A stretch of 64,000 bases of DNA, from the NCBI RefSeq assembly GCF_030144855.1, contig NC_082707.1, positions 71,176,001 through 71,240,000 on the forward strand. Direction: 5' to 3'. The DNA is from Hypanus sabinus (Eukaryota). A program made the position numbers and the translations under genes. The notes under the pieces were generated by a model that was given only the letters and a program-made list of their open reading frames with translations, was not told the DNA's origin and made no database searches. This document shows, piece after piece, positions 13,541 to 52,464 of this stretch (its first letter is position 1; each line of letters opens with the position of its first letter).

Positions 13541-15191
13541 TGTTTTTGATTAAGATTTTCCACATGACGTATTTCATTCACAAGTAAGCCTCAAATAAAA
13601 AGAATCAGAGCATGAATATACTGCAATTGGATTCACTTTTTAAATGTTGTAGGCTAAAGCAATGTTTCTCCTTGTATTTTACAAATTAGCTGTAAAGCAA
13701 AACATCCTTTTGTATAGTTGCTTGAATAGCTTTATAGACAACTTTTTGTTTACCTCACCATATTAAGGCAGTTAATATCACTCACTTCTGCATTACTGGG
13801 AAACTTACAAATCTATACAAAAGCAATAGATTCATGATGTGATTAAAGTTGACATGAATGCCCATGTGCATACATCTGATAACTGTTCAGGGTCAGAACA
13901 TAATAGCTATTGCATTGCCTATTCGGTCTAACATGTCTTATTTTGTACACAACGTAATACAGCTGCAAAATTTTGGAGCATAATTTGCTACAAGATGCCA
14001 AATGGCACTTAAGGGACACATGGTGCCAACAAAAAAAATTAATCTTGGCTTGTTGAGATTCAGAGATTATTAAATGAGTGGAGAGTACTCCTTGGTTCTT
14101 CATTGTATTGGCAGCTGCTTGACTTGTGATGCTGATCATGCAAATAGACATTATGAGCTGAGTAAGTTATTCTGCTGCAATAGGCTGACAGGGAACTATT
14201 AATTGATTCAGAGCACAACATTGTGTATAACCTTGCCTAAAACAAACACAGCTGGCAATATCATACTCACTCCAAGATATAAATTTAGCCATGACAGAAC
14301 TTTTTAGCCAAGGTTACCAAGAGTCAAGTTTGCCAAAGTAATAACTTTTTTTTCATTGTTTGTCTTAGTGCTTGCAGTGTGCAGTTTATAATGAAGGAGA
14401 AAGAACATTCTGATGCAGGATTTCAACTACTTGTCTGCTCAGGGTGAATTTGTGCTCTCTTTTGCAGAGATAGACAACTGAGTTGCCCAAGGTGTAAAAG
14501 CAAATAATGCCAGTACTCAAGGTATATGTCAGGTAGCATAAAACTTCCTGCAGGCAAAAAAAGTAAATGAAGCATGAGAATAAATATTCAAGGAGTGAAA
14601 GGAATCAGTCTTCCCAACTGGAAGGCATTTTGTGAGGCTAGTGGTGGTCATTTTGCACCTGTTTAGGGTTGTTTTAATTGCATCAAGGTTTTGCCACTGG
14701 GTTTCAGAATGGACTTCTGCATCTCCTTGATAATTCATTTGTTATTCTTTTGAAGTGAAATTGTTAGGTGTGAAAAACTGAAATTTCTTCTTCACAGCTT
14801 AGTAAACCATTTTTATTTTCCATGTTTGCACTGAAGGTTTTCTGCTTCCCTTGTTCCAATGTTATTAATCCATAAGAAAGGAAGTCATAACCGATCAACT
14901 GCTGAGCAAAACAGTTCTCCTCCAATCAACTCACTTCCATCTCCACTGATCCTACTTGACCTGCTGCATGCTGCCAGCGTTTTCTATTTTGTTTTAGATT
15001 TCCAGTGTCTGTGGTTTTTTGTTTTGCATCGTATACCCTGTAGTCATAACTTGTTAGTAGTAAGGGGTCTGTAGCAATTCTCCTTGGTTGAGTTCGTTCT
15101 CAGTAGAGGCAACCATAGCTGTTTGTATCAATCACTTTAGACTGCTCTTACATTCATTTTCTAGCCATTGTATCCTGAGCTGACGGAATCC

Positions 15192-16211
15192 TGCAGTGAC
15201 TAGTGGGATTAGGCAAGGGTCAGTGCTGGGACCCCAGTTGTTTACAATATATATTAATGATTTAGACGAGGGAATTAAATGCAGCTTCTCCAAGTTTGCA
15301 GATGACATGAAGCTGGGCAGCAGTGTTAGCTGTGAGGAGGATGCTAAGAGGATGCAGGGTGACTTGGATAGGTTAGGTGAGTGGGCAAATTCATGGCAGA
15401 TGCAATCTAATATGGATAAATGTGAGGTTATCCACTTTGGTTGTAAGAACAGGAAAACAGATTATTATCTGAACGGTGGCCGATTAGGAAAAGGGGAGGT
15501 GCAACAAGACCTGGGTGTCATTGTACACCAGTCATTGAAGGTGGGTATGCAGGTACAGCAGGCGGTGAAACAGGCAAATGGTATGTTGGCGTTCATAGCA
15601 AAAGGATTTGAGTGCAGGAGCAGGGAGGTTCTACTGCAGTTGTACAAGGCCTTGGTGAGACTGCACCTAAAGTATTGTGTGCAGTTTTGGTCCCCTAATC
15701 TGAGGAAAGACATTCTTGCCATAGAGGGAGTACAAAGAAGGTTGATGGGATGGCAGGGCTTTCATATGAAGAAAGACTGGATCAACTAGGCTTGTACTCA
15801 CTGGAATTTAGAAGATTGAAGAGGGATCTTATTGAAACGTATAAAATTCTAAAGGGATTGGATAGGCTAGATGCAGGAAGATTGTTTCTGATGTTGGGGA
15901 AGTCCAGAACGAGGAGTTGCAGTTTTGAGGATAAAGGGGAAGCCTTTTAGGTCCAAGATGAGGAAAAACTTCTTCACACAGATAGTAGTGAATCTGTGGA
16001 ATTCTCTGCCACAGGAAACAGTTGAGGCCGGTTCATTGGCTATATTTAAGAGGAAGTTAGATATGGCCCTTGTGGCTAAAGGGATCAGGGAGTATGGAGA
16101 GAAAGCAGGTACAGGGTTCTGAGTTGGATGATCAGCCATGATCATACTGAATGGCGGTGCAGGCTCGAAGGGCCAAATGGCCTACTCCTGCATCTATTTT
16201 CTATGTTTCTA
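15192..16211 (+). mobile_element. 5'-truncated CR1 (HER1-like) LINE; RT pseudogene fragment
   Basis: ORF 15196-15789 has QGSVLGPQLFTIYINDL, KFADD, KCEVIHFG and YCVQFWSP. Frameshifted C-terminus VVNLWNSLP, and a CTATGTTTCTA tail. Confidence 0.95.
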
Positions 16212-17059
16212 AACCTGGGAAGAGTCATTTTGTTATCAGCTGTGCAAGAATATTGAATCTGTATGGATGATTTATAATAACATATAAAACTCCAGAAACC
16301 TAAAAAGTATGAGAACATTTTAATCATTGTTATTATCACTGCAATGGATGTGATCTGCAGACTTTATTTTCTTAATTTTCCTGTCCATTTCAGACAATGT
16401 ATTTCTAAGGTCAGCCTCTCATACTTTTTTAATCCACTACTTTTACTTTTTGTAACAAAGCCAGTATGAACTGATTTGGGTTTAAAATCATGGTTGATCC
16501 AGGTCAGTAAAGGGCTGAGCATAGCCCAGGTGTGTGGACCATTTCTTACTCAATGTGTATATTGACATTTACGCATGTGCATCCCAGAAAGATTTGTGCC
16601 CTTTTGAATTATCAGTCTTCTTTCATTATGCAATAGTATGGCAGTTTGGTTTAGCAATTTATTGGTAGATAAAAATTTAGCTTTCTTTAATTTAATCTCA
16701 CTGTTGTTACATTCAGAAGTGTATATTGGTGAATAATGAGTAATAGTCATTTGGACGCTGTTTGAAAGAAGATGTTATGCTTTGCTTGGATATCCCCATT
16801 TTATAAAGTCTCTTTATACATTTGCTTCCTTTAATTGTGTACAAAACATGCTTAGTATTCACCATAATTAGTTGAAGAATTCAAAAGTTGCAAGCTGTGA
16901 AGATGAGAAAGGGAAGAAGGCACTTGGTGAAAGTGTAGAACAGGGTGTAACACACAGGCAGTCTTTTCCAATTTTTGCTTCTATTAAGTCAAAAAAAAGA
17001 CTTTAGGGCACTTCTGTGAGTGGCTGACAGTTATTATCTTGTACAGACTATTGTCTTAA

Positions 17060-24695: not shown

Positions 24696-25140
24696 CATTG
24701 GATTCTGATGCTGTTAATCCAATGTTCTTCTGGAAGTCAGGACAGAGGCATAAAACTTGTTGATTCAATGGAACAAAGGAAACTGAAAATGGACAGTAAC
24801 AGGGCAGAAACTAGTTGTGGAAGAGAGAGAAGATGCACTGATGGCAGTGTCACATTGTTAGCTGCTTTTATACCCCATAGATGAGAAACATGCCATTCAA
24901 ATTCATGGCTATGAGTTAACCAATCAGATAGTCCCTATTCAAATAATGCAATACCAAGAGAACTTTACAGAATTTGTAAAGAATTGTAATCACTAGGGGC
25001 ACACTGATAAACTACATATACATGGTGTAGCCACTAGGAAGCATACCAAACAGTTCCATGTATGTCAGTAGTTATAAAAAATGCCAGCAGGCATAAATTG
25101 TTAAACAAAAAAAAAGACAATTAAATTGCCTAATCCAACA
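24696..25140 (-). repeat. 3' LTR of the provirus
   Basis: Starts TGTTGGATT directly after a purine tract and ends AATCCAATG (decayed inverted repeat). Contains an ATTGG/CCAAT box (~24920) and GGGGTATAAAAG TATA box (~24865-24876). Homologous to 33624-33760 and 25725-26061. Confidence 0.8.
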
Positions 25141-25153
25141 ATACTCCTTTGAT
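25141..25153 (-). promoter_or_regulatory. Polypurine tract (degenerate)
   Basis: Minus-strand ATCAAAGGAGTAT abutting the TG start of the 3' LTR. Confidence 0.55.
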
Positions 25154-25280
25154 TCTAAATCACATATAGAATCATCACATCTGAAAATTCAGAGGTAGCA
25201 AAAAATATTTCTGTTAAGTATAAAATAATGAAAAACTGCCTCAGTATTATCAAAGGTATATACAGTATTCTTCAAAGTAT

Positions 25281-25465
25281 TCATGGGATTTTGTCACGGT
25301 TAGGTAGATCAGTAGCCACACTTTCATGAGTTTGAACTATTCTATTAAAGATAGCCATTAAACAAGTAAAACAGATATAAATTATGATAAGGCATATTAG
25401 TACACATTGTTAGCAGAAGGAATTAGCTAAACTATGATGACAATTAATATTAGAATACATTTCAT
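25281..25465 (-). pseudogene. env: env remnant (signal-peptide-like start next to a transmembrane anchor and cytoplasmic tail)
   Basis: MKCILILIVIIV* from 25465, then QCVLICLIIIYICFTCLMAIFNRIVQTHESVATDLPNRDKIP* (25409-25281), located between IN and the PPT. Confidence 0.5.
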
Positions 25466-25599
25466 AATGTCCAGTAGCTTTATCAACTTGTTTGAAGCCT
25501 TCTGGCTGGTTAGTGATTTGCTGATTGAGGCCCAGCAGCGTAGGCACTTTGTCAGAGGTTACAAGCCGGTTAATCACAACAGTTGTCCTTGCCGGGTAC

Positions 25600-28500
25600 T
25601 ACTTCAGCTTGCTTGTAGTGCTTGGCATGTACCCACTTACTTTACCTTCTACCTCCACTGCTGAGTTAGTAATTAACAGCACTTGATAAGGACCCTCCCA
25701 TCGAGGTCCCAGTGGTTCCTTAATATACCTCCCAAAATAAATTGAAAGTGGACAGTAACCAGAGTGGAGGCTAATAGCAAAAGGGAGAGAAGAAGTAAAA
25801 AGATAGCAGAGCAGCATGGTCAGCTCTTTTTATACCCCATAGTTAAAAAAAAATTCCATTCAAACTTGTAGGTAAGAGTTAACCAATCAGATAGCCCTGT
25901 TCATATAATGCAGCACCAGAGAAGCTTCCAGCATTCTTCAGAACATTACAAAAAACTGTAGTAACTGGGGACATACTGAACAACAGCATACTGTGGCATG
26001 AGGAAACAAACAGTTACACGTACACTATATAAGTTAGTATGTAAAAAATACTAGCAGGTAATCCCAGTGGTTCCTTAATCAGGATCCATTCATCGGGAAT
26101 CAAAATATGTCCTTCTGATAGATCACTGCAGGCAGCAGAAACCTGCAGAGAAGCAGACTGGACAGCTTGGGTTAATTTCACACAATAGTTAATTTAACTG
26201 TCTCCCCTAATGGTTTTTGCAGCCTCTCTGAGATTGAGTGCTCCTGGCAGGGACATAGATGGCACCTCAAATGGACTTAATATTTTCTTGTTTGGGGTTT
26301 CTCTGATGCTACACAAGAGTCATAGGCCATGGTATGCCTTCTTGCCTTCTTCATGTTACTTAGTCAGTCATTGGTTGATGGTTCCATTCATTTGTTGACT
26401 TCTCCTGATGACTCAGGATGATGTGGACAATGAAAAGACCACTCAATGTTCATTAGTTGACATAGGTCCAGACAAACACTCCCAGTGAAATGTGTCCCTT
26501 GGTCAGAGTCAATGTAACATGGCAATCCCCATCTAGGAATATAGTTCTTAATCAGAATTTTTTGCTCTGTGTGTGGCAGTAGCCATCCTTGTTGGAATAG
26601 CTTCCATCCATCTTGAAAACTTGTCCACTATTAGCAGAGCATCCCAGTACTGTTGACACTTTGGCAAAGTTATATTGTCCACTTGAAAGTGTTAAAATGG
26701 ACCAGGTGTGGTAGGAACACTTAATTGTGGTAGCTTTTCCATTGCTCCAGGATTCATTTTTCGGCATGTCATGTAACTTTCAAGTGTTTGTCATGCTTGT
26801 GCCCTGAACTTTGGATTCCACCACCATTGTGTCGATCATCTTTTCCACTCCATTGTGTCCTAGGGAGTGTGTCTTCTGTGTCAGGTAAGGAAGCAGTGTA
26901 ACTGGAGCTACAATGTCTGTGACTAGTGCCATATCTCCATGCTCCATCACTGCTTAACTTCCCACTATTCTCCATCCACAACCACTTTTCCTGGTTAGAG
27001 CATTCAGGTTGTATCTTTTGATAATCTTGTATGTTCATCTGTGAGACAGTGTTCAACTTTGTTTTCATAATTCCAGTTAACAGGTTCAATGCACATTTAC
27101 TTGGAATTTCTTCTTCTTTTGTTTCCTTTGCTGTGTTGCTCTTTCTGCAATTTCATCTGTGAATACACTCCCACAGCTTTCCATTGTAGCCATTTGGAGT
27201 GGCTTTTACATTTTAGTACAGCAACTTCTGATGGCAATTGTATGACATCCATCATTTCTTGTACTAGTTGGCCATTCTTGATTGAGGTTCCTCTTCAGCT
27301 AAAGATACCCTCATCAGCTCCGTAAGTTTCCAAAATCATGAATAATTGCAAAGGTATATCGAGAATCAGTGTAGATATTAGCTGATCTTCCTCCTGCCAA
27401 CTTACAGGCTTCAAAGCTTTTAAATCTGCCCTTTGCGCAGAGTTACCAGCAGCCATGCTTCCTGATGCCAGCACTTCAGGTCCAGAAATAATGGCCCACC
27501 TGGCTATTCAAATTCTTCTCTCAATTGTTGAGGAGCCATCAGTGTATAGTATCATATTTGGGTTCCACAAAAACATTTCTTTGTAATAATTTGCATCCTC
27601 ATGGCAGGTTATTGGTTCAGCACAGTATTGGTCATCAGAATCTTCAATGTCTAACAGTAACAGTGTAGCTGGGTCACACATAATGCTAGAAACAGCCATG
27701 ATTACCAGATAGGTTGACTGCACTGCCCATAAATGTATGCCCCAACCTCCTGCTACATTATGCAATTTAACAGAGTAATAACCAACAGGACACGTAGGTC
27801 TCCATGTTCTTGAGTTCAGATTGCCATCAGGTAGTATGCTTCTCAATCAATGGAGGTGCACTGTACAATGTCACCTTTAAAGTTTGAAACGCTTTCAGTT
27901 GTTCTTCATTAAGAGTCACGGGGTCATCTGAGCACTTACTGCCCTTCAGCAGATTGTTGAGCAATTTCAGTGCATGAGTCAACCCTGGCTCAGTTGTTGT
28001 TGTGCAAACCCAGAAATAACCAGAGTGGCTGGTCTGTTATAGGTGGCTTTGCTGACTTAACAACTTTTGCATGATCCTCAGTGGTTTCCCAAGGAAATTT
28101 TCTATCCCAAGAAAATTACTTCTTGTTGCAATTGTACCTTGTGTCACTTAACTTTGTGACCTTTGGAGGATAGATAATCAAGCAAATAAAGCACACCATG
28201 TTCAAGTTGGTCTGCAGCTTTGGATGCAATCAGAACATCATCCACATATTGTATGATGGTTGAATCAATGGCTGGTAAGTCCCACAGATGTTGTCTCAAA
28301 GCCAGTCGGACTGTTGTAGAGCCCTTGTGTTAGATTCATGCACTGGTGTTGTTCATTAACTGTAAAAGCCAACCATGGTTGTCATTCAGACACCAGTGGC
28401 ACTGACCAGACCCACTATCCATATCAATATGGGTAAACCACTTGTGTAAGCGGTTCAGAGCTTTAGGAATGCTTGATGGATCTGCCGCCAAAGAGGCTGG

Positions 28501-28980
28501 ACTGTCAATGTATTGATTAGCTATCCAGTAATCACTGTTGGTCTTCAGGTACCATTCACTTTCTTACAAGCCAGAATGGACTATTAGATGGGCTGTGAAT
28601 CTTAACCAAATTCCCTCGCTCCTCCAGTTGGTTGACAAAATATTCTACTCTGAGGTTACTGCTTGGTACAAAATGGTATCTTTCCAGCAAACTCAATAGG
28701 ATTCATTTCCAGCAGGTCACATAGTTTATTTTTTGACCATGTGGAATGATTGGTGAATTCAGATTTGGCCAACTGCATAAGATTCCAAACCCTCTACCCT
28801 TTACCCTCTACCAATTCGGGGGTGGAGTTTAAAGCTTAAAAAAATCCTTTCCAAGAGGAGTTTGTGAGACATCTCTTACCCAGAAATGTGCTTCTTGTAG
28901 TTGAGGATCAAGTTGTACCTTGACTGGTTTGCTTTTGGTTATTATACATGGTAGGCCAGAACCTGCATCTTATAAGAATT
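25600..28980 (-). pseudogene. pol: Retroviral pro-pol pseudogene (protease, RT, RNase H, integrase) with many stops and frameshifts
   Basis: PR end QTPLGKDF. RT SPSNSPFWLVRK...KWFTHIDM...WSVPL...AFT...QGLYNSP...IIQYVDDVLIAS (YVDD at 28237-28248). RNaseH LYTDGSS, SAQRADLKA, ANIYTDSRY. IN VDKFSRWMEAIP...IPRWGLPCYIDSDQGTHFTG...HHPESSG and C-terminal LGPRWEGPYQVLL. Confidence 0.92.
25725..26061 (-). repeat. Partial LTR copy (U3-R region) inserted in the integrase C-terminus
   Basis: Collinear with 24780-25092 (shared GGACAGTAAC, TTTTATACCCCATAG, GAGTTAACCAATCAGATAG). Flanked by TCCCAGTGGTTCCTTAAT at 25707-25724 and 26062-26079. Confidence 0.85.
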
Positions 28981-29280
28981 CAGCATTCTCATTTTCAATA
29001 AGTTAACATCTAATTTTTGCTCTTTCAAGGTAAGCAAGAACTGCAGGGAAGGGCCTAGTTATTATCTTGTCCATGACGGTGCATGCATTATATCTAACAT
29101 TTTTTCTTGAAAATCATGCTGTCAAATCAGAATTTTCTGTACTTTGAGAAGCAAGGGATTCTGGTTGTAGTCCTACCAAATTTCACTGGAGAAAGCCAGC
29201 TTCTATTTACCCATTGTATACCCCTCATAATTTTGTATACCTTTATCAGGTCTCTGTCTTCTATGTTCTAAGAAATAAAA

Positions 29281-30150
29281 GGTTCAAAGGTTCACTTGTT
29301 ATCAAAGCATGTATCAATATACAACTTGAAATTTGTATTCTCCAGGTGACCACAAAAACAAAGGAAGAATGAATCATTCTGAGAGAAACATCAAACCCAC
29401 CCCCCCTGTACAAAAATGAATGACATTCTGATCATCAAGCACACTCCTCCACACACAAAATGGAACAGGAACATTGGTCCCCAAAAAGTAACCCTCCCTC
29501 ACACTGATAATTAACAGAACATTAACCCCAAATGCCCTCCCCTCGCACAACAAAACGGAAAGGAATGGGTGATAAAGAACACAGAATATGTAAACCATTA
29601 GTCTGAAAAAGCCCACAGTCCTTAAACGCAATAGTCCAATCCATAAACGCAGAAACACAATACCATCCTGCACCATCATTGACATTGATTGAAAGAGAAG
29701 AGAAGGACAGTACACAAGGCAGAAAGGCTTACCCGCCTGTCACAGACAGCCTCACAGCGACAGGCTACTCAAAAGGAAGGCACCCGGTGTCGAAACTCTT
29801 GCTCACTTCCACATTCGCCTCGATGTTTCAGTCTGCTTCGAAGCTTTAATCGGTGAATACTGGACACTTTAAATGATGAAATGAAGTCGAACATTGACTT
29901 GTACCCCATTCCAAAGTTCCTTCACAATGAGGCCATCCCAGTGCACGCTCGCTTCCTGGAATCTTCTTGGAGACAGCGAAGAGCTAGATCATGCAAATGT
30001 TCTTCAAGCTGTAAATTGCAGGCTCTAACTCCAACAGTCGTGGGAACATACTTAAGGTGAAAAACAAATGTAAAAGAAGTAAAATGAATATTTTTGTGAG
30101 TTATCAGGAAGATGTCGACCTAGATGTTGTATGCTGGCGTCATCTTGACC
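29281..30150 (-). mobile_element. Non-autonomous LINE-derived (Rex1-like ends) element
   Basis: Minus strand starts GGTCAAGATGACGCCAGC and ends in a TGAACCTTTGAACC tail, with no coding content. The host CR1 resumes after it (ATAAAA on both sides). The tail end resembles 42838-43536. Confidence 0.6.
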
Positions 30151-30400
30151 AGATAAAAGTCATAACATATTCAACCTTTTCTTGTTACTCAGGTCCTCCA
30201 GACCCAGCAATATCCTTTCAAATTTTCTGTGTACTCTTTCAAACTTATTTACATCTTTCCTGTAGGTGGGTGACCATGATAATCCAGAAAAGGCCTGAAC
30301 AATGTCTTCTATATCTTCAGCGTAGCATCCCATCTCCTGTACTCCAGTACTTTGATGGCCAATGTGCCGAAGTTTTCATCAACACCCTATCTACCTGTTA

Positions 30401-30543
30401 CAAACAAGAAAAAAGATCTACAGATGTTGGAAATCTGAGCAGCAACCACAAAATGATGGAGGAACTCAGCAGGCCAGGCGGCATCTATGGAAAAGAGTAT
30501 AGTTGATGTTTCAGGCCATAATGATTCAGCAGGACAGCAGGAA
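30401..30543 (-). mobile_element. Short Penelope-derived tail unit with 13-bp target-site duplication
   Basis: TATCTACCTGTTA (30388-30400) and TATCTACTTGTTA (30544-30556) flank a 143-bp unit homologous to 41885-42019. Confidence 0.8.
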
Positions 30544-32789
30544 TATCTACTTGTTATGCCACTATCAATGAATTATGGACCTGTATTCCCAGATCACTTG
30601 GTTCTACCATATTCCTCGGTCCCTACTGTTCACTGTGTAAGACCTACCCTGGCTGGTCCTACAGAAGTACGCCTTACACTTGTCTGCAATGAATTCTTTC
30701 TGCAATTTTTCCAACTGATCCAGATCCCTCTACAAGCCATGGTAGCCTTCCTCGATGTACACTATATCCTCAATTTTTGTATCACCTGCAAATTTACTGA
30801 TCCAGTTAACCACACTCATCCAGATCGTTCACATAGTTGACAAACAACAACGGACCCAGAACTGATCCCTATGGCACAGCACTCATCACAGGTCTCCAGT
30901 CAGAGAGGCAACCATCTACTATCACAGTCTCTGGCTTCTCCCACAAAGCCAACGTGTAATCTAATTTACTACCTCATCTTGAATGCTGAGTGACTGAACC
31001 TTCTTGACCAATTTCTCCTGGTGGGACCTTGTCAAATGCCTTGCTAAAGTCTATGTCGACAACATCCTTGCCGTCATCCAAAAAACTCGAGATTGGTTAG
31101 ACAAGATCTACCACAACAAAGCCATGTGGACAGCCCTTAACCATGTCATGTCTACTACGCAAGTACGTATATATCTGGTCCCTTAAAATATCTTCCAATA
31201 ACTTTCCCACACTGAGGTCAGTCTCACCGGCCTATAATTTTCTGGTTTATGCTTAGAGCCTTTCTTAAACAGCAGAACAGCATTGGCTATCCGCCAATCC
31301 TCTGGTACTTCTCCTGTCACCAAGGATGATTTAAATATCCCTATTAGGGCACTTAACTCTTGCAGGATTTCAGGGGACACCTTGTCAAGCCTGGGGATTT
31401 ATCCCTCCTGATTTGCCACAGGGTAGCAAGCACCTCCTCCTCTGTAATCTGTTCAGGGTCGGTGAAGTTGATGTTGTTTTGCCTTACTTCTATAGACTCT
31501 GTGTCCATCTCCTGAGTGAAAGCAGATGCAAAAGAATTATTTAAAATCTCCCCCATCTCTTTTGACTCTACACATGGATTTCCATTCTGATCTTACAGAG
31601 GACCAAGTTTATCCTTTGAAATCCTTTTGCTCAAAACATATCTGTAGAATCCCTTAGGGCAACTTCATACCTTATTTAGCCCTCCTGATTTCTTCCATAA
31701 GCGTCTCTTGCATTTCTTGTACTCCATAAGCATCTCATTTGTTCCTACCTGCCTCTACCTCTAGGCACCTTTTTTTTAATAACTAGGGCTTCAATATCTT
31801 GAAAACTAAGTTTCTCTTATACAAGCTACCTTTATCTTTTATTCTGACAATTATATGAAAGCTTTGTACTCTCATTAATTTCACTTTTGAAGGCCCCCCA
31901 CTTATCAAGTACTCCTTTGCCGGAAGACAGCCTGGCCCAATCCACAGTTGCCAGATCATTTCTGATAGCATCAAAATTGGCCTTTCTCCAATTTAGAATC
32001 TCAACCCATGGACCAGACCTCTTTTCATATATTTACTTCAAAACTAATGGCATTGTGGTCAATGGATGCAAAGTGTTCCCCTACACAAACTTTTGTTATT
32101 TGCCCTGTCTCATTCCCTAATAGCGGATCAAACATTGCTTACTCACTTGTTAGGACTTCCACATACTGATTAAGGAAACTTCCCTGAACACATTTGAGAA
32201 ACTCTGTCCCATCTGATCTTTTATTGTATGGCAGTCCCAGTCAATATGTAGAAAGTTAAAATCACCAACTGTATCTACCTTATGCTTCTTGCAACTATCT
32301 GTAATCTCTCTACAAATTTGTTCCCCTAAATTGCTAAGACTGTTGGGTGGTCTGTAATATAGCCCCATTGATGTGGTCATACCTTTCTTATTTCTCATTT
32401 CCACTCACAATGCCTCACTAGTTCTCCAGTCTGTCCTGATGGAGCACTGCCATGATATTTTCCCCAACTAATAATAACACCTCTCCTCTTTTAATCCCTT
32501 TCGCTCTGTCACATCTAAGGCAATGGAACCCCGGAATACTGAGCTGCCAGTTCTGCCCCCTCCTGCAGCCAAGTCTCATTATGTCATAATTGCAGGTATT
32601 GATCCATGCCGTAAGTTCATTTGTCTTTCTTACGATACTTCTTGCATTGAAATATACGCAGCTAAGGACACTGGTCACACCATGTGCAACCTTTTGATTC
32701 CTGACTTTGAAGCCTGACCAGCATCTGTCTCCACAACCTCTCCTCTGTCTGTTCAGGCACTCTGGTTCCCATCCGCCAAATGTTGTGTC

Positions 32790-33550
32790 TGTAATTCATC
32801 TTGTCTCTTCTTTCCTGAATTGATGAGTTATTTACTTGCTTAGTTAACTCACAAATTTGATTCTCAAGCTGACAGTATGTTGGCTTAAGCTGTTCTTCTG
32901 ACCCAGTGCGTTTATGCTTTTTTAACTACTTTAAAATTGCTGTCACGGGGGTGGTCTTTTTTGCTTGAAGTTATTTTCTGGATCTTATTCCATAGTTGCA
33001 CATATTATATAAGAGCTATATTTCATTAGACTCAACATCAATGGTATATTTTGTCTGGAGTTTTTCAGTAAATGTATCAAACTGGAATGTTTTAATCAAA
33101 TAAGACCTCAAACCCTCAGTTATCTGTTCACATGTAATGGGAGATTCTGTAATTGGTTTCGGGAAATTGGCCATTGTCACAATTCCATCTCATTACACTT
33201 AATTCGTACATACTTTGACTGTGATCTCGGAGTATTAATAGGTTGTCCTGCAACCCAAAGTTTACTCAATTACTCCCCTAACCTGTACGTATTGTGCCCC
33301 ATGGCTTGTAAGTATTTAATTTCTTTCACACTCCACCGGTTTACACATATTCATGCTCCATCACTTATGCATATTTGATTATCTTTGTGCTCCTCCGGCT
33401 TTTCAGATCAGTTTCTTTTTCAACATAACAACTTTTCAAAATCATCTTCTCAATTCTACTTCCATCCAATGATGCATTGAAGCCAGGACTAGGTTTTCTT
33501 TCAGACAATTTGTAATTAGAAGAAACTCTTATCTCACTTGTTGCATGCTG
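32790..33550 (-). pseudogene. Leader/gag remnant of the provirus
   Basis: Position between the PBS and pro-pol, and an A-rich, codon-like minus strand. No diagnostic motif recognised. Confidence 0.4.
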
Positions 33551-33602
33551 AATAAGTTACACTTCCTTTGTGATTCTTCCAAACCCTTAAGTCTTCGCAA
33601 CT

Positions 33603-33620
33603 ATCCTGCTGACTATGCCA
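33603..33620 (-). promoter_or_regulatory. Primer-binding site complementary to tRNA-Ser
   Basis: Minus strand TGGCATAGTCAGCAGGAT versus TGGCGTAGTCGGCAGGAT (complement of the vertebrate tRNA-Ser 3' end). 16/18 match, both differences CpG->CpA; 3 nt after the LTR end. Confidence 0.85.
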
Positions 33621-33623
33621 ACT

Positions 33624-33760
33624 TATTGGATTTTGATGTTTTTAATCCAAGGTTCTTTTGGAAGTTGGGAAAGAGGCATAAAGCTTGTTGCTTCCTGATC
33701 ATTTTACTAAGTGTTAGTAGAACAAAGAAAATTGAAAACAAGCAGTAACCTTAGCAGAGT
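33624..33760 (-). repeat. 5' LTR remnant (R-U5 only)
   Basis: 33626-33690 matches 24698-24762 (56/65) and 33720-33758 matches 24771-24808. Homology stops near 33760. Confidence 0.8.
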
Positions 33761-47464: not shown

Positions 47465-49195
47465 TCAACATACATAAAATGCCGACGGAAATCAACAGGT
47501 CAGACAGCAACGATGGAAGTGGATAAACAGTTGATGTTTGGGGCCGAGATCCTTTATCAATAGACAATAGGTGCAGAAGTAGACCATTCGGCCCTTCGAG
47601 CCTGCACCACCGTTCTGAGATTGTGGCTGATCATCTACTATCAATACCCGGTTCCTGCCTTGTCCCCATATCCCTTGATTCCCTTATCCATAAGATACCT
47701 ATCTAGCTCCTTCTTGAAAGCATCCAGAGAATTGGCCTCCACTGCCTTCTGAGGCAATGCATTCCAGACCCCCACACCTCTCTGGGAGAAGGTTTTTCCT
47801 TAACTCTGTCCTAAATGACCTACCCCTTATTCTCAAACCATGCCCTCTGGTACTGGACTCTCCCAGCATCTGGAACATATTTCCTGCCTCTATCTTGTCC
47901 AATCCCTTCTTATATCCAATCTTATATGTTGCAATCAGATGCCCTCTCAATCTCCTTAATTCCAGCATGTACAAGCCCAGTCTTTCTAACCTCTCTGCGT
48001 AAGACAGTCCAGACATCCCAGGAATTAACCTCGTGAATCTGCGCTGCACTTTCCTGTACAGCCAGGATGTCCTTCCTTAACCCTGGAGACCAAAACTGTA
48101 CACAGTACTCCAGGTGTAGTCTCACCAGGGCCCTGTACAAATGCAAAAGGATTTCCTTGCTCTTGTACTCAATTCCCTTTGTAATAAAGGCCAACATTCC
48201 ATTAGCTTTCTTCACTGTCTGCTGCACCTGCTCATTCACCTTCAGTGACTGATGAACAAGGACTCCGAGATCTCTTTGTATTTCTCCCTTACCTAACTCT
48301 ACACTGTTCAGATAATAATCTGCCTTCCTGTTCTTACTCCCAAAGTGGATAACCTCATACTTATTCACATTAAACGTCATCTGCCAAGTATCTGCCCACT
48401 CACCCAGCCTATCCAAGTCACCCTGAATTCTCCTAACATCCTCATCACATGTCACACTGCCACCCAGCTTAGCATCATCAGCAAACTTGCTGATGTTATT
48501 CTCAATGCCTTCATTGAAATTGTTGATGTAAATTGTAAACATCTGTGGTCCCAATACCGAGCCCTGTGGCACCCCACTAGTCACCACCTGCCATTCCGAG
48601 AAACACCCATTCACCGTTACCCTTTGCTTTCTATCTGCCAACCAGTTTTCTATCCATGTCAATATCTTCCCCCCAATGCCATGAGCTCTGATTTTACCCA
48701 TCAATCTCCTATGTGGGTCTGAGAAGGAAGGGGTAAGAAGGCAGGATAAGAAGGTGGGGGAAGGGCAGTAGGAAAAGTTGGAAGGTGATAGGCGAAGTCA
48801 GTTGGGTAGGGGAGGGGAGATGAAGTAAGAAGTTAGATGGTAAATGGAAAAGGCAAAGGACTGGAGAGGAAGGAATGTGACTGGAGAGGAGAGTGGTAAT
48901 GGGAGAAAGGGAAGAAGGAGAGGCACCAGGGGCAGGTGATAAGCAGGTGAGGAGAAGAGATAAGAAACCAAGTGGGGAAATGAAGGAGAGGGAAGGAGGA
49001 AGAGAAAACATTGCTGAAAGTTGGAAAAATTGATGTTCGTGCCTTCAGGTTGGAGGCTGCCTTGACAGAGTATGAAGTTGTTGCTCCTCTAACCTGAGAA
49101 TGGCCTCGTCATGGCAGAGGAGGCGGCCATGGACCAACATGTCAGAATGAGAATGCAGATGAGAATTGAAATGGTTGGCCACCAGGAAATTCTGC
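47465..49195 (-). mobile_element. Penelope-like element 3' fragment split by a CR1 insertion
   Basis: 49020-49195 is the reverse of the post-GIY-YIG segment seen at 20570-20730. A pyrimidine tract spans 48720-49010, and the tail resumes at 47559-47465. Confidence 0.75.
47560..48715 (-). mobile_element. 5'-truncated CR1 LINE; RT pseudogene fragment
   Basis: ORF 47922-48704 has VTSGVPQGSVLGP, KFADD and HLEYCVQFWSP; CTATTGTCTAT tail. Confidence 0.95.
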
Positions 49196-51597: not shown

Positions 51598-52464
51598 TAG
51601 AAACATAGAAAATAGGTGCAGGAGTAGGCCATTTGGCCCTTCGAGCCTGCACCGCTGTTCAGTATGATCATGGCTGATCATCCAACTCAGAACCCTGTAC
51701 TTGCTTTCTTTACATACCCCCGATCCCCTTAGCCACAAGGGCCATATCTAACTCCCTCTTACATATAGCCAATGAACTGACTTCAACTGTTTCCTGTGGC
51801 AGAGCATTCCACAGATTCACCACTCTCTGTGTGAAGAAATTTTTCCTCATCTCGGTCCTAAAAGGCTTCCCCTTTATCCTCAAAACTGCGACTCCTCGTT
51901 CTGGACTTCCCCAACATCAGAAACAATCTTCCTGCATCTAGCCTATCCAATCCCTTTAGAATCTTATACGTTTCAATAAGATCCCTCTTCAATCTTCTAA
52001 ATTCCAGTGAGTATAAGCCTAGTCGATCCAGTCTTTCTTCATATGAAAGTCCTGCCATCTCAGGAATCAATCTGGTGAACCTTCTTTGTACTCCCTCTAT
52101 GGCAGAAAATGTCTTTCCTCAGATTAGGGGACCAAATCTGTACACAATACTCCAACTGTGGTCTCACCAAGGCCTTGTACAACTGCAGTAGAAACTCCCT
52201 GCTCCTGTACTCGAATCCTCTTGCTATGAATGCCAACATACTATTTGCCTTTTTCACCGCCTGCTGTACCTGCATGCCGACTTTCAATGACTGGTGTACA
52301 ATGACACCCAGGTCTCATTGCACCTCCCCTTTTCCTAATCGGCCACCATTCAGATAATAATCTGTTTTCCTGTTCTGGCAACCAAAGTGGATAACCTCAC
52401 ATTTATCCATATTAGATTGCATCTGCCATGAATTTGCTCACTCACCTAACCTATCCAAGTCACC
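51598..52464 (-). mobile_element. 5'-truncated CR1 LINE, same subfamily as 15192-16211
   Basis: Minus-strand ORFs KKANSMLAFIARG...LEYCVQIWSP and GLSYEERLDRLGLYSLE; same tail CTATGTTTCTA. Confidence 0.95.

Follow-up and report, generated by a model that had tools for sequence, protein, structure and literature searches.

We analysed a 64,000-nucleotide stretch of the Hypanus sabinus genome (contig NC_082707.1, positions 71,176,001 to 71,240,000), called the window below, with positions counted from its first letter. A preliminary description, made from the letters alone, had proposed that it holds a class III, ERV-S/snakehead-like endogenous retrovirus (ERV). The element in question is a minus-strand long terminal repeat (LTR) element at 24696-~33750, with LTR ends of the TGT..ACA type (Table 1). 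Its identification as a minus-strand LTR provirus was borne out by paired LTRs, a primer-binding site (PBS) and a broken pro-RT-tether-RNase H-IN region with a GPY module (RT, reverse transcriptase; IN, integrase). The proviral order described earlier was also found, but the provirus is not full, as the middle of gag, most of the 5' LTR and most of env are missing. Approximately 125 of 445 nt of the 5' LTR are left, and family copies start matching from ~33749. The LTRs of the family are 418-469 nt long, with identical ends in seven copies. A target-site duplication was unreadable at the window element because the start of the 5' LTR is missing, and flank pairs in five other copies gave no clear match. 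The ancestral layout would have been LTR-PBS(Ser)-gag(CCHC)-pro-RT-tether-RH-IN(GPY)-env(gamma-type)-PPT-LTR (RH, RNase H; PPT, polypurine tract). Our best explanation, which we regard as fairly probable, is that the element represents one dead and fixed member of an old multicopy ERV family whose Pol belongs with ERVs of ray-finned fish; the lineage is likely sister to gamma- and epsilonretroviruses, and the family was likely amplified from an env-deleted master.

Table 1. Features of the minus-strand element in the window (K2P, Kimura two-parameter distance; LINE, long interspersed element; SU and TM, surface and transmembrane parts of Env).
Feature	Position	Strand	Evidence and remarks
5' LTR remnant, R/U5 end only	33624..33750	-	86% in a 70-nt repeat vs 3' LTR; 81% over 106 sites, K2P 0.225
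PBS for tRNA-Ser(AGA)	33603..33620	-	3 nt past LTR end; 16/18 to host tRNA-Ser(AGA)+CCA
Leader and putative broken 5' part of gag	32808..33602	-	68-80% DNA matches in other copies; gag suggested by position and fuller copies
LINE complex with nested short repeats	29146..32807	-	Exo_endo_phos_2 and RVT_1 matches (Pfam)
gag 3' end and protease remnant	28800..29145	-	tblastn to P0203/P0263, E 6e-4; relatives L101 and L113 have LLDTGA here
Reverse transcriptase core, YVDD	28087..28664	-	RVT_1 E 3.7e-6; 56% to P0012 over 185 aligned residues; 5 stops, 5 frame breaks
RT thumb and tether (degenerate RNase H), partly deleted	27658..28086	-	41% to P0012; 13- and 49-residue deletions
Retroviral RNase H, broken	27137..27549	-	RNase_H E 0.005; 46% to P0012
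Integrase zinc-finger and core, broken	26062..26960	-	rve E 9e-4; 50% to P0012; 6 stops, 4 frame breaks
LTR-like piece, 340 nt, inside IN	25722..26061	-	76% to 3' LTR, K2P 0.30
Integrase C-terminus, GPY module	25600..25721	-	MLVIN_C E 6.6e-5; 62% to P0009 over 34 residues
env remnant: hydrophobic N-terminal piece and membrane-anchor/tail end	25160..25480	-	Joined at ~25402; SU and TM ectodomain deleted
Polypurine tract, decayed	25141..25155	-	Purine-rich run directly before 3' LTR; better preserved in copies L036, L041, L044 and L047
3' LTR, 445 nt	24696..25140	-	Terminal inverted repeat TGTTGGATT..AATCCAA; CCAAT-like and TATA boxes

We read the broken pol with an X at each break and obtained 910 aligned residues with 45% identity to the protein P0012; the whole pol carries 15 stops and 18 frame breaks. 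The YVDD of the RT was confirmed at ~28240. The RT signature reported as IDMxxG(F)WSVPL was recovered as IDMDSG..WSVPL across a frame break at ~28420, but the bracketed F is absent from the sequence. The RNase H is supported by a weak Pfam match, with its acidic residues present and one E reading D. In the DDE integrase core the first two aspartates were found, but the third residue does not read as E in the window copy. The GPY module is present as PRWEGPYQV with an MLVIN_C match. The RNase H, rve and MLVIN_C matches are all weak, under the Pfam curated cut-offs, because of the frame breaks. We detected no dUTPase match in the window frames at E<=0.1, and no gag family was matched by Pfam in the window or in copy L101. 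The gag-pro junction of the window copy is badly degraded.

Further, we placed the family in phylogenetic trees. RT sets comprised 78/123 non-redundant RTs, followed by trees of 60 (subset), 186, 49 and 36 rows. WEHV1 was included as a named virus (P0033), snakehead retrovirus (SnRV) was represented by a protein with the RT motifs printed for it in the accessible supplement of PMC7947760 (P0057), and the ERV-L/S-like and lokiretrovirus-like rows were labelled by motif only. The nearest proteins were Pols of Astyanax, Alosa, Coilia, Danio and gar and unnamed fish-type records, and the window element nested among Astyanax, Danio, Coilia, Alosa, gar and cod-cluster Pols at 37-46% identity. Summed tblastn scores were 650 bits for P0009, 605 for P0014 and 557 for P0011, versus 239 for WEHV1. 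The X-read Pol scored 706 bits to P0203 versus 185 to the SnRV-motif protein, to which it is only 26% identical. In all RT trees the family's own copies stood together within the fish clade, this clade was sister to gamma- and epsilonretroviruses and not nested within them, and the SnRV-like, ERV-L/S-like, loki-like and Gypsy rows lay farther out. Support in the careful RT trees was high (own copies, 100/98-99; fish clade, 100/99; fish clade plus class I, 99-100/98-99), and the 186-row tree had the same topology. The whole-Pol tree, which had no Gypsy outgroup, gave 100/100 at the fish-clade and clade-plus-class I nodes; quick IN and RNase H trees agreed with the RT, with weaker support. The preliminary description had left room for an RT of Gypsy type, and the family falls within the retroviruses, whose clade split from Gypsy at 100/100, with both RNase H and tether present.

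Alternative groupings were compared by approximately unbiased (AU) tests. Family plus SnRV was rejected (p=5e-5), as were, under LG+G4, family plus SnRV-like rows and family plus ERV-L/S-like rows (p=4e-7) and, in whole Pol, family plus WEHV1 (p=1e-4). The test of family plus its eel/shark neighbours gave p=0.013, and that of Huo-type rows without the family p=0.079. Against solved structures, the relative P0009 scored 428 bits to MLV-type RT (MLV, murine leukaemia virus) versus 211 to foamy RT. Taken from sequence comparison, these results suggest that the lineage is likely sister to gamma- and epsilonretroviruses, on the class I side. With class I ERVs (WEHV1, gamma-like) the family shares a CCHC knuckle, a GPY module, a gamma-type TM and the order pro-RT-tether-RH-IN; zinc finger and GPY/F module are named as markers of the class I side in the accessible part of PMC1224870. 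Class I ERVs differ in sitting on a long, fully supported branch from the family and in having a DAFF/NAFF RT motif as opposed to the NGFW type. According to the part of PMC8672886 available, most zebrafish class I ERVs resemble an 'ancestor type' of epsilon- and gammaretroviruses; these might belong to the present clade. A scan of IMG/VR with P0009 gave no matches.

Several points weigh against placement on the class I side. In the text of S2 Fig of Xu et al. 2018 (PMC6001957), Cy_ca_ERV4, Le_oc_ERV2, Es_lu_ERV3 and Ga_mo_ERV4, ray-finned ERVs with the motifs of our fish clade, stand in the clade Huo block, a listing that follows the label order of the figure text only. In the same block, eel and whale-shark elements adjoin these ray-finned members; they are the next branches in our trees too. 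The NGFW-type RT motifs are nearer to SnRV than to gammaretroviruses. Gamma-type env is also present in HERVS and XtERV-S and does not separate the classes. Our trees were built without a foamy virus, a class II virus or a named HERV-S/ERV-L, and reading frames were picked using a fish-clade scoring matrix, so a slight bias toward the fish clade is possible. The first root test did not reject the family inside Huo/class III (p=0.107).

From these points a competing explanation can be built, namely that, with element and history unchanged, the lineage branches off early within the SnRV-related clade Huo (class III broadly taken) and owes its apparent affinity to class I to the rooting and to taxa absent from our trees. 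In line with this, SnRV and CmiERV lineage I (clade Huo) share with the family the NGFW-type RT motif, YVDD and a GPY-type IN end, SnRV having one zinc finger (PMC1224870, in the part available) and a weak MLVIN_C match, and the CmiERV of elephant shark scaffold 2 (SnRV cluster) has a Ser PBS identical to that of the window family. However, two further root tests on other taxon sets, with a lokiretrovirus-like outgroup, rejected the Huo placement (p=0.0135 and p=0.002), the whole-Pol split from SnRV-like rows is at 100/100, RNase H and IN fall likewise on the class I side, and P0009 scores higher to MLV-type than to foamy RT, as given above. We rate a Huo membership as unlikely. The conflict with Xu et al. 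2018 probably concerns the root and the attachment of class II and foamy viruses. As SnRV is already described as intermediate between epsilon and spuma-like viruses (PMC1224870, accessible part), a grade leading to class I is unsurprising. Taken broadly, the label snakehead-like has backing in print, through the ray-finned relatives listed in clade Huo in the figure text of PMC6001957, but not in the sense of a grouping with SnRV itself. Three Huo-type elements elsewhere in the host genome (L116, L117 and L118) are nearest to Mustelus-cluster and Latimeria rows; they suit the SnRV/ERV-S idea of the preliminary description better than the window element does.

Returning to the reading of a class I-side lineage, we compared it with published ray-finned elements. 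The RT motifs of one ray-finned ERV lineage are the same as those of the family's nearest proteins (DMSNGFFSVPL / DMANGFWSVPL, IQYVDD); it comprises Cy_ca_ERV4, Le_oc_ERV2, Es_lu_ERV3 and Ga_mo_ERV4 (PMC6001957) and Mamb.ERVi.1a-c and Eluc.ERVi.2 (PMC10435555), as far as the accessible parts of both papers go. These published sequences were matched by motif and not placed in trees; by such a match, RT, RH and IN of the family are monophyletic with fish proteins bearing the Cy_ca_ERV4/Le_oc_ERV2 motifs (100/99-100). The window family is a new host branch of this known lineage of carp, gar and pike. According to the same partial sources the ray-finned elements are young, some of them intact and polymorphic, whereas the window branch is old, degraded, mostly env-deleted and found in another host group. 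Among the skate, whale shark and elephant shark entries seen in the supplement of Xu et al., none has the clade motifs. The lineage had been suggested to be poorly described, and it is indeed neither named nor described as a clade in the literature covered, which was available in part, but its ray-finned members are already in print as single ERV entries. We found no account of the family in cartilaginous fish in the literature searched, which was likewise available in part and lay outside Repbase and subscription journals. The lokiretroviruses (PMC7947760, part available) are fish-associated and have a dual RNase H, like the family, and its nearest integrase matches are annotated NYNRIN-like. 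This identity was ruled out by motifs and trees, as the motif-labelled loki-like rows branch outside all retroviral rows including the family, and the loki env is paramyxovirus-F-like, whereas that of the family is gamma-type.

Between IN and the 3' LTR lie 460 nt, made up of the two env ends. A first reading of the family as env-less was overturned by fuller copies, which hold 396-1641 nt at the env position, some of that being other repeats. Motifs of the immunosuppressive-domain (ISD) or CX6CC type were present in 3 of 36 copies, and one of five env-bearing copies scanned (L035) had a TLV_coat match (E 1e-4, just under the curated cut-off). By these motifs, sister copies carry a gamma-type TM/env. 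Among the 36 copies, the env junction had the short form in 12 and the long form in 8 (16 unscorable). Ten of the 12 short-form copies run collinear with the window over the junction, and the remaining two show an additional small deletion; in seven long-form copies similarity is lost and regained at about the junction point of the window. An independent search with the env remnant gave 39 other scored matches, 28 of which cross the junction and 11 of which start at or near it. The copy sets were found by window-derived queries, which biases the share of env-deleted copies upward. Since one junction is common to many copies, one deleted template likely founded many insertions, and an env-deleted master was likely amplified in the germ line. 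The accessible part of PMC10536682 reviews loss of env together with a high copy number as the 'superspreader' pattern.

The shared deletion might also have spread without intracellular amplification, either with a helper virus carrying deleted genomes or by segmental duplication. In favour of this, parts of RT or gag are missing too from several copies, younger ERV families are present in the host genome, and PMC10435555 (part available) recognises complementation in trans as a route. On the other hand, three env-deleted copies (L100, L101 and L113) retain nearly the whole pro-pol span, and env-deleted copies lie on many contigs, with no flank shared between the window and the copies compared, which speaks against segmental duplication. 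We consider such a spread rather improbable. In the mechanism that we propose, the element would have been primed by tRNA-Ser and integrated by a GPY-type integrase, as its anatomy and established retrovirology suggest. Many insertions would then have arisen from one env-deleted template, either through retrotransposition within the cell or through complementation in trans.

The 18-nt PBS with two CpG decays, as noted earlier, was confirmed. Located at 33620-33603, it was compared with tRNA-Ser(AGA) only, using the complement of the 3' end with CCA added from two host genes; 16 of 18 positions agree, and the two mismatches are both CG>CA. Such a match is expected by chance at ~2e-8 per site, and copies L038 and L110 match tRNA-Ser(AGA) at 18/18. 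The same Ser PBS 18-mer heads other LTR elements in the host genome and precedes a class I-type RT in L083. Two papers, PMC1224870 among the sources, call PBS use unreliable or unstable for classification, in the parts available. The statement that tRNA-Ser priming defines ERV-S did not hold, the same PBS being found on the class I-type L083 and on the SnRV-cluster CmiERV. L080 was considered as a Ser-primed Gypsy and set aside as evidence; its PBS is separated from the Gypsy ORFs (open reading frames) by an MLVIN_C match, and the Gypsy is probably nested.

The family resembles ERV-S (HERVS, XtERV-S) and ERV-L in several respects, namely the Ser PBS, a class I-type env (HERVS, XtERV-S) and the lack of a dUTPase match (HERVS), while HERVS/HERVL and XtERV-S are without a Gag zinc finger, by the partial sources, and the family has a CCHC knuckle and YVDD. 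A foamy/spuma identity, for which the lack of a nucleocapsid zinc finger would be expected, does not fit either, the family having the CCHC knuckle and P0009 scoring higher to MLV-type than to foamy RT. That the family belongs to ERV-S, or connects SnRV-like with ERV-S elements in the way the preliminary description had proposed, is very improbable: such a position would account for the tRNA-Ser(AGA) PBS, as in XtERV-S (primed by tRNA-Ser by its described tRNA, in the source part available), the TGT..ACA LTR ends, the gamma-type env and the missing dUTPase match, but family plus the motif-labelled ERV-L/S-like rows was rejected, as was grouping with SnRV, the family has YVDD and not YIDD, and the PBS is the unstable marker just described.

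Several side observations concern Ser-primed sites. We retrieved 25 sites that match the tRNA-Ser(AGA) 3' end exactly; only two were tRNA genes (L074, L075), the others being PBS-like sites. At C1:26.3-29.5 Mb (L053-L068) there are 16 exact Ser-PBS pattern matches ~100-430 kb apart with similar flanks, and 13 more are clustered at C81:8.8-20.3 Mb (flanks not read). These clusters look like an element carried within a tandemly duplicated gene cluster. Three younger Ser-primed LTR elements (L081, L085 and L087) have LTR pairs at 89-91% and no detected RT; two keep a TLV_coat match and one a protease, and they are likely non-autonomous ERVs.

Family homology ends at ~32808 and restarts at ~29145, where five relatives carry 1.2-1.4 kb of gag. 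In the window a 3.7-kb LINE complex stands in place of ~1.3 kb of gag (the capsid/nucleocapsid part); we take the complex to be of the CR1/L2 type. Among 16 gag-selected copies, two have a CX2CX4HX4C (CCHC) knuckle (L101, L103) and two have LLDTGA. The knuckle is also present in the Danio relative P0199. Compared pairwise with the Danio Gag, the window gag scored 48, at the level of shuffles (31-44), and only L101 was clear at 143. The 340-nt LTR-like piece that splits IN is flanked by direct repeats of 15-18 nt, and both LTR termini are missing from it. It is missing from family relatives. Other organisms carry it at the orthologous locus, and it is older than the split of the organisms sharing the locus. 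It differs by 24% from the 3' LTR of the same element and is unlike an integrase-made insertion; it likely arose by template switching or repair capture. After insertion the window element decayed: a LINE complex stands in gag, most of the 5' LTR and the middle of gag are gone, IN contains the LTR-like piece, and pol is broken.

We estimated the size of the family with three queries, which gave lower bounds and not copy numbers. The IN query returned at least 513 first-look candidates, of which 40 were scored, at 75-81% identity; the env-remnant query returned at least 498 and the gag query at least 107. Identity between family copies is 70-80%. The family is old and multicopy, with at least dozens of copies in the host genome. 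Of the intact relatives for which a search had been suggested, none was among the 36 family loci fetched at 10 kb, all of which were fragmentary or broken. Besides this family, the host genome has two or more ERV families whose pol frames are long and open, class I by RT (L013-L032, L088, L089) and unrelated to the window family at DNA level; one of them has near-identical LTRs and a different PBS. The open-frame ERVs L013-L032 were considered as relatives of the window element and rejected, as there was no DNA-level match. One other ERV family of the host genome shares an RT motif with a skate ERV, no more than a hint at a cartilaginous-fish host, which is plausible.

Parts of the stretch were present in 20 public runs from 12 organisms. 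None of the runs listed was of RNA, which says nothing about expression. Four organisms were examined, and three of them (A, C and E, from three studies) had contigs 94-98% identical over the flank-LTR junction or the IN insert. The junction was bridged by X1 record 1 and X8 record 25, and the insert by X1 record 4, X5 records 18-19 and X8 record 26. For organism I (run X12), none of the long pieces listed crosses the junctions, and one flank bin was without depth. Since the locus is common to at least three other organisms at 94-98%, it would have been inherited vertically since before their split, without coding function. Nothing suggests co-option, and the locus appears inert.

The LTR pairs of five copies differ by K2P 0.234-0.267, close to the value of the window remnant in Table 1 (106 sites). 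The insertion is roughly 4-8 times older than the splits of the hosts sharing the locus. This corresponds to 51-61 million years (My) at 2.2e-9, 112-134 My at 1e-9 (our own bracket) and 510-610 My at 2.2e-10 per year, the rate used for elephant shark, all figures being inflated by CpG decay. The last date is older than plausible, and no single date was adopted. A rate of 7e-10 per generation is given for a shark in the accessible part of PMC10587355.

The element has value as a dated fossil. With it, a lineage so far represented by young elements of teleosts reaches a further group of hosts, and amplification after env deletion has an example in fish. If the placement is true, the element marks the branch between the SnRV-like grade and class I, clade Huo is paraphyletic, and a calibration point is gained from one insertion that is orthologous in several hosts and whose LTRs are 4-8 times more diverged than the hosts are. 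It also cautions that a Ser PBS and an NGFW motif are insufficient for calling an element ERV-S. A bolder version, which we offer tentatively and would not yet bet on, is that an unnamed genus-level clade, until now grouped with SnRV-like elements, is in truth sister to the gamma- and epsilonretroviruses as a whole, and that the family is its first cartilaginous-fish branch and oldest fossil (plausibly >100 million years), with env loss and germ-line superspreading far before the rodent examples.

Outside the element, further LINE RT fragments were observed in the window at 15184-15844, 47560-48797 and 51600-52464. A repeat of ~195 nt at 16017-16212 is 96-97% identical to inserts in the family copies L036 and L051, and so is a recent mobile repeat.

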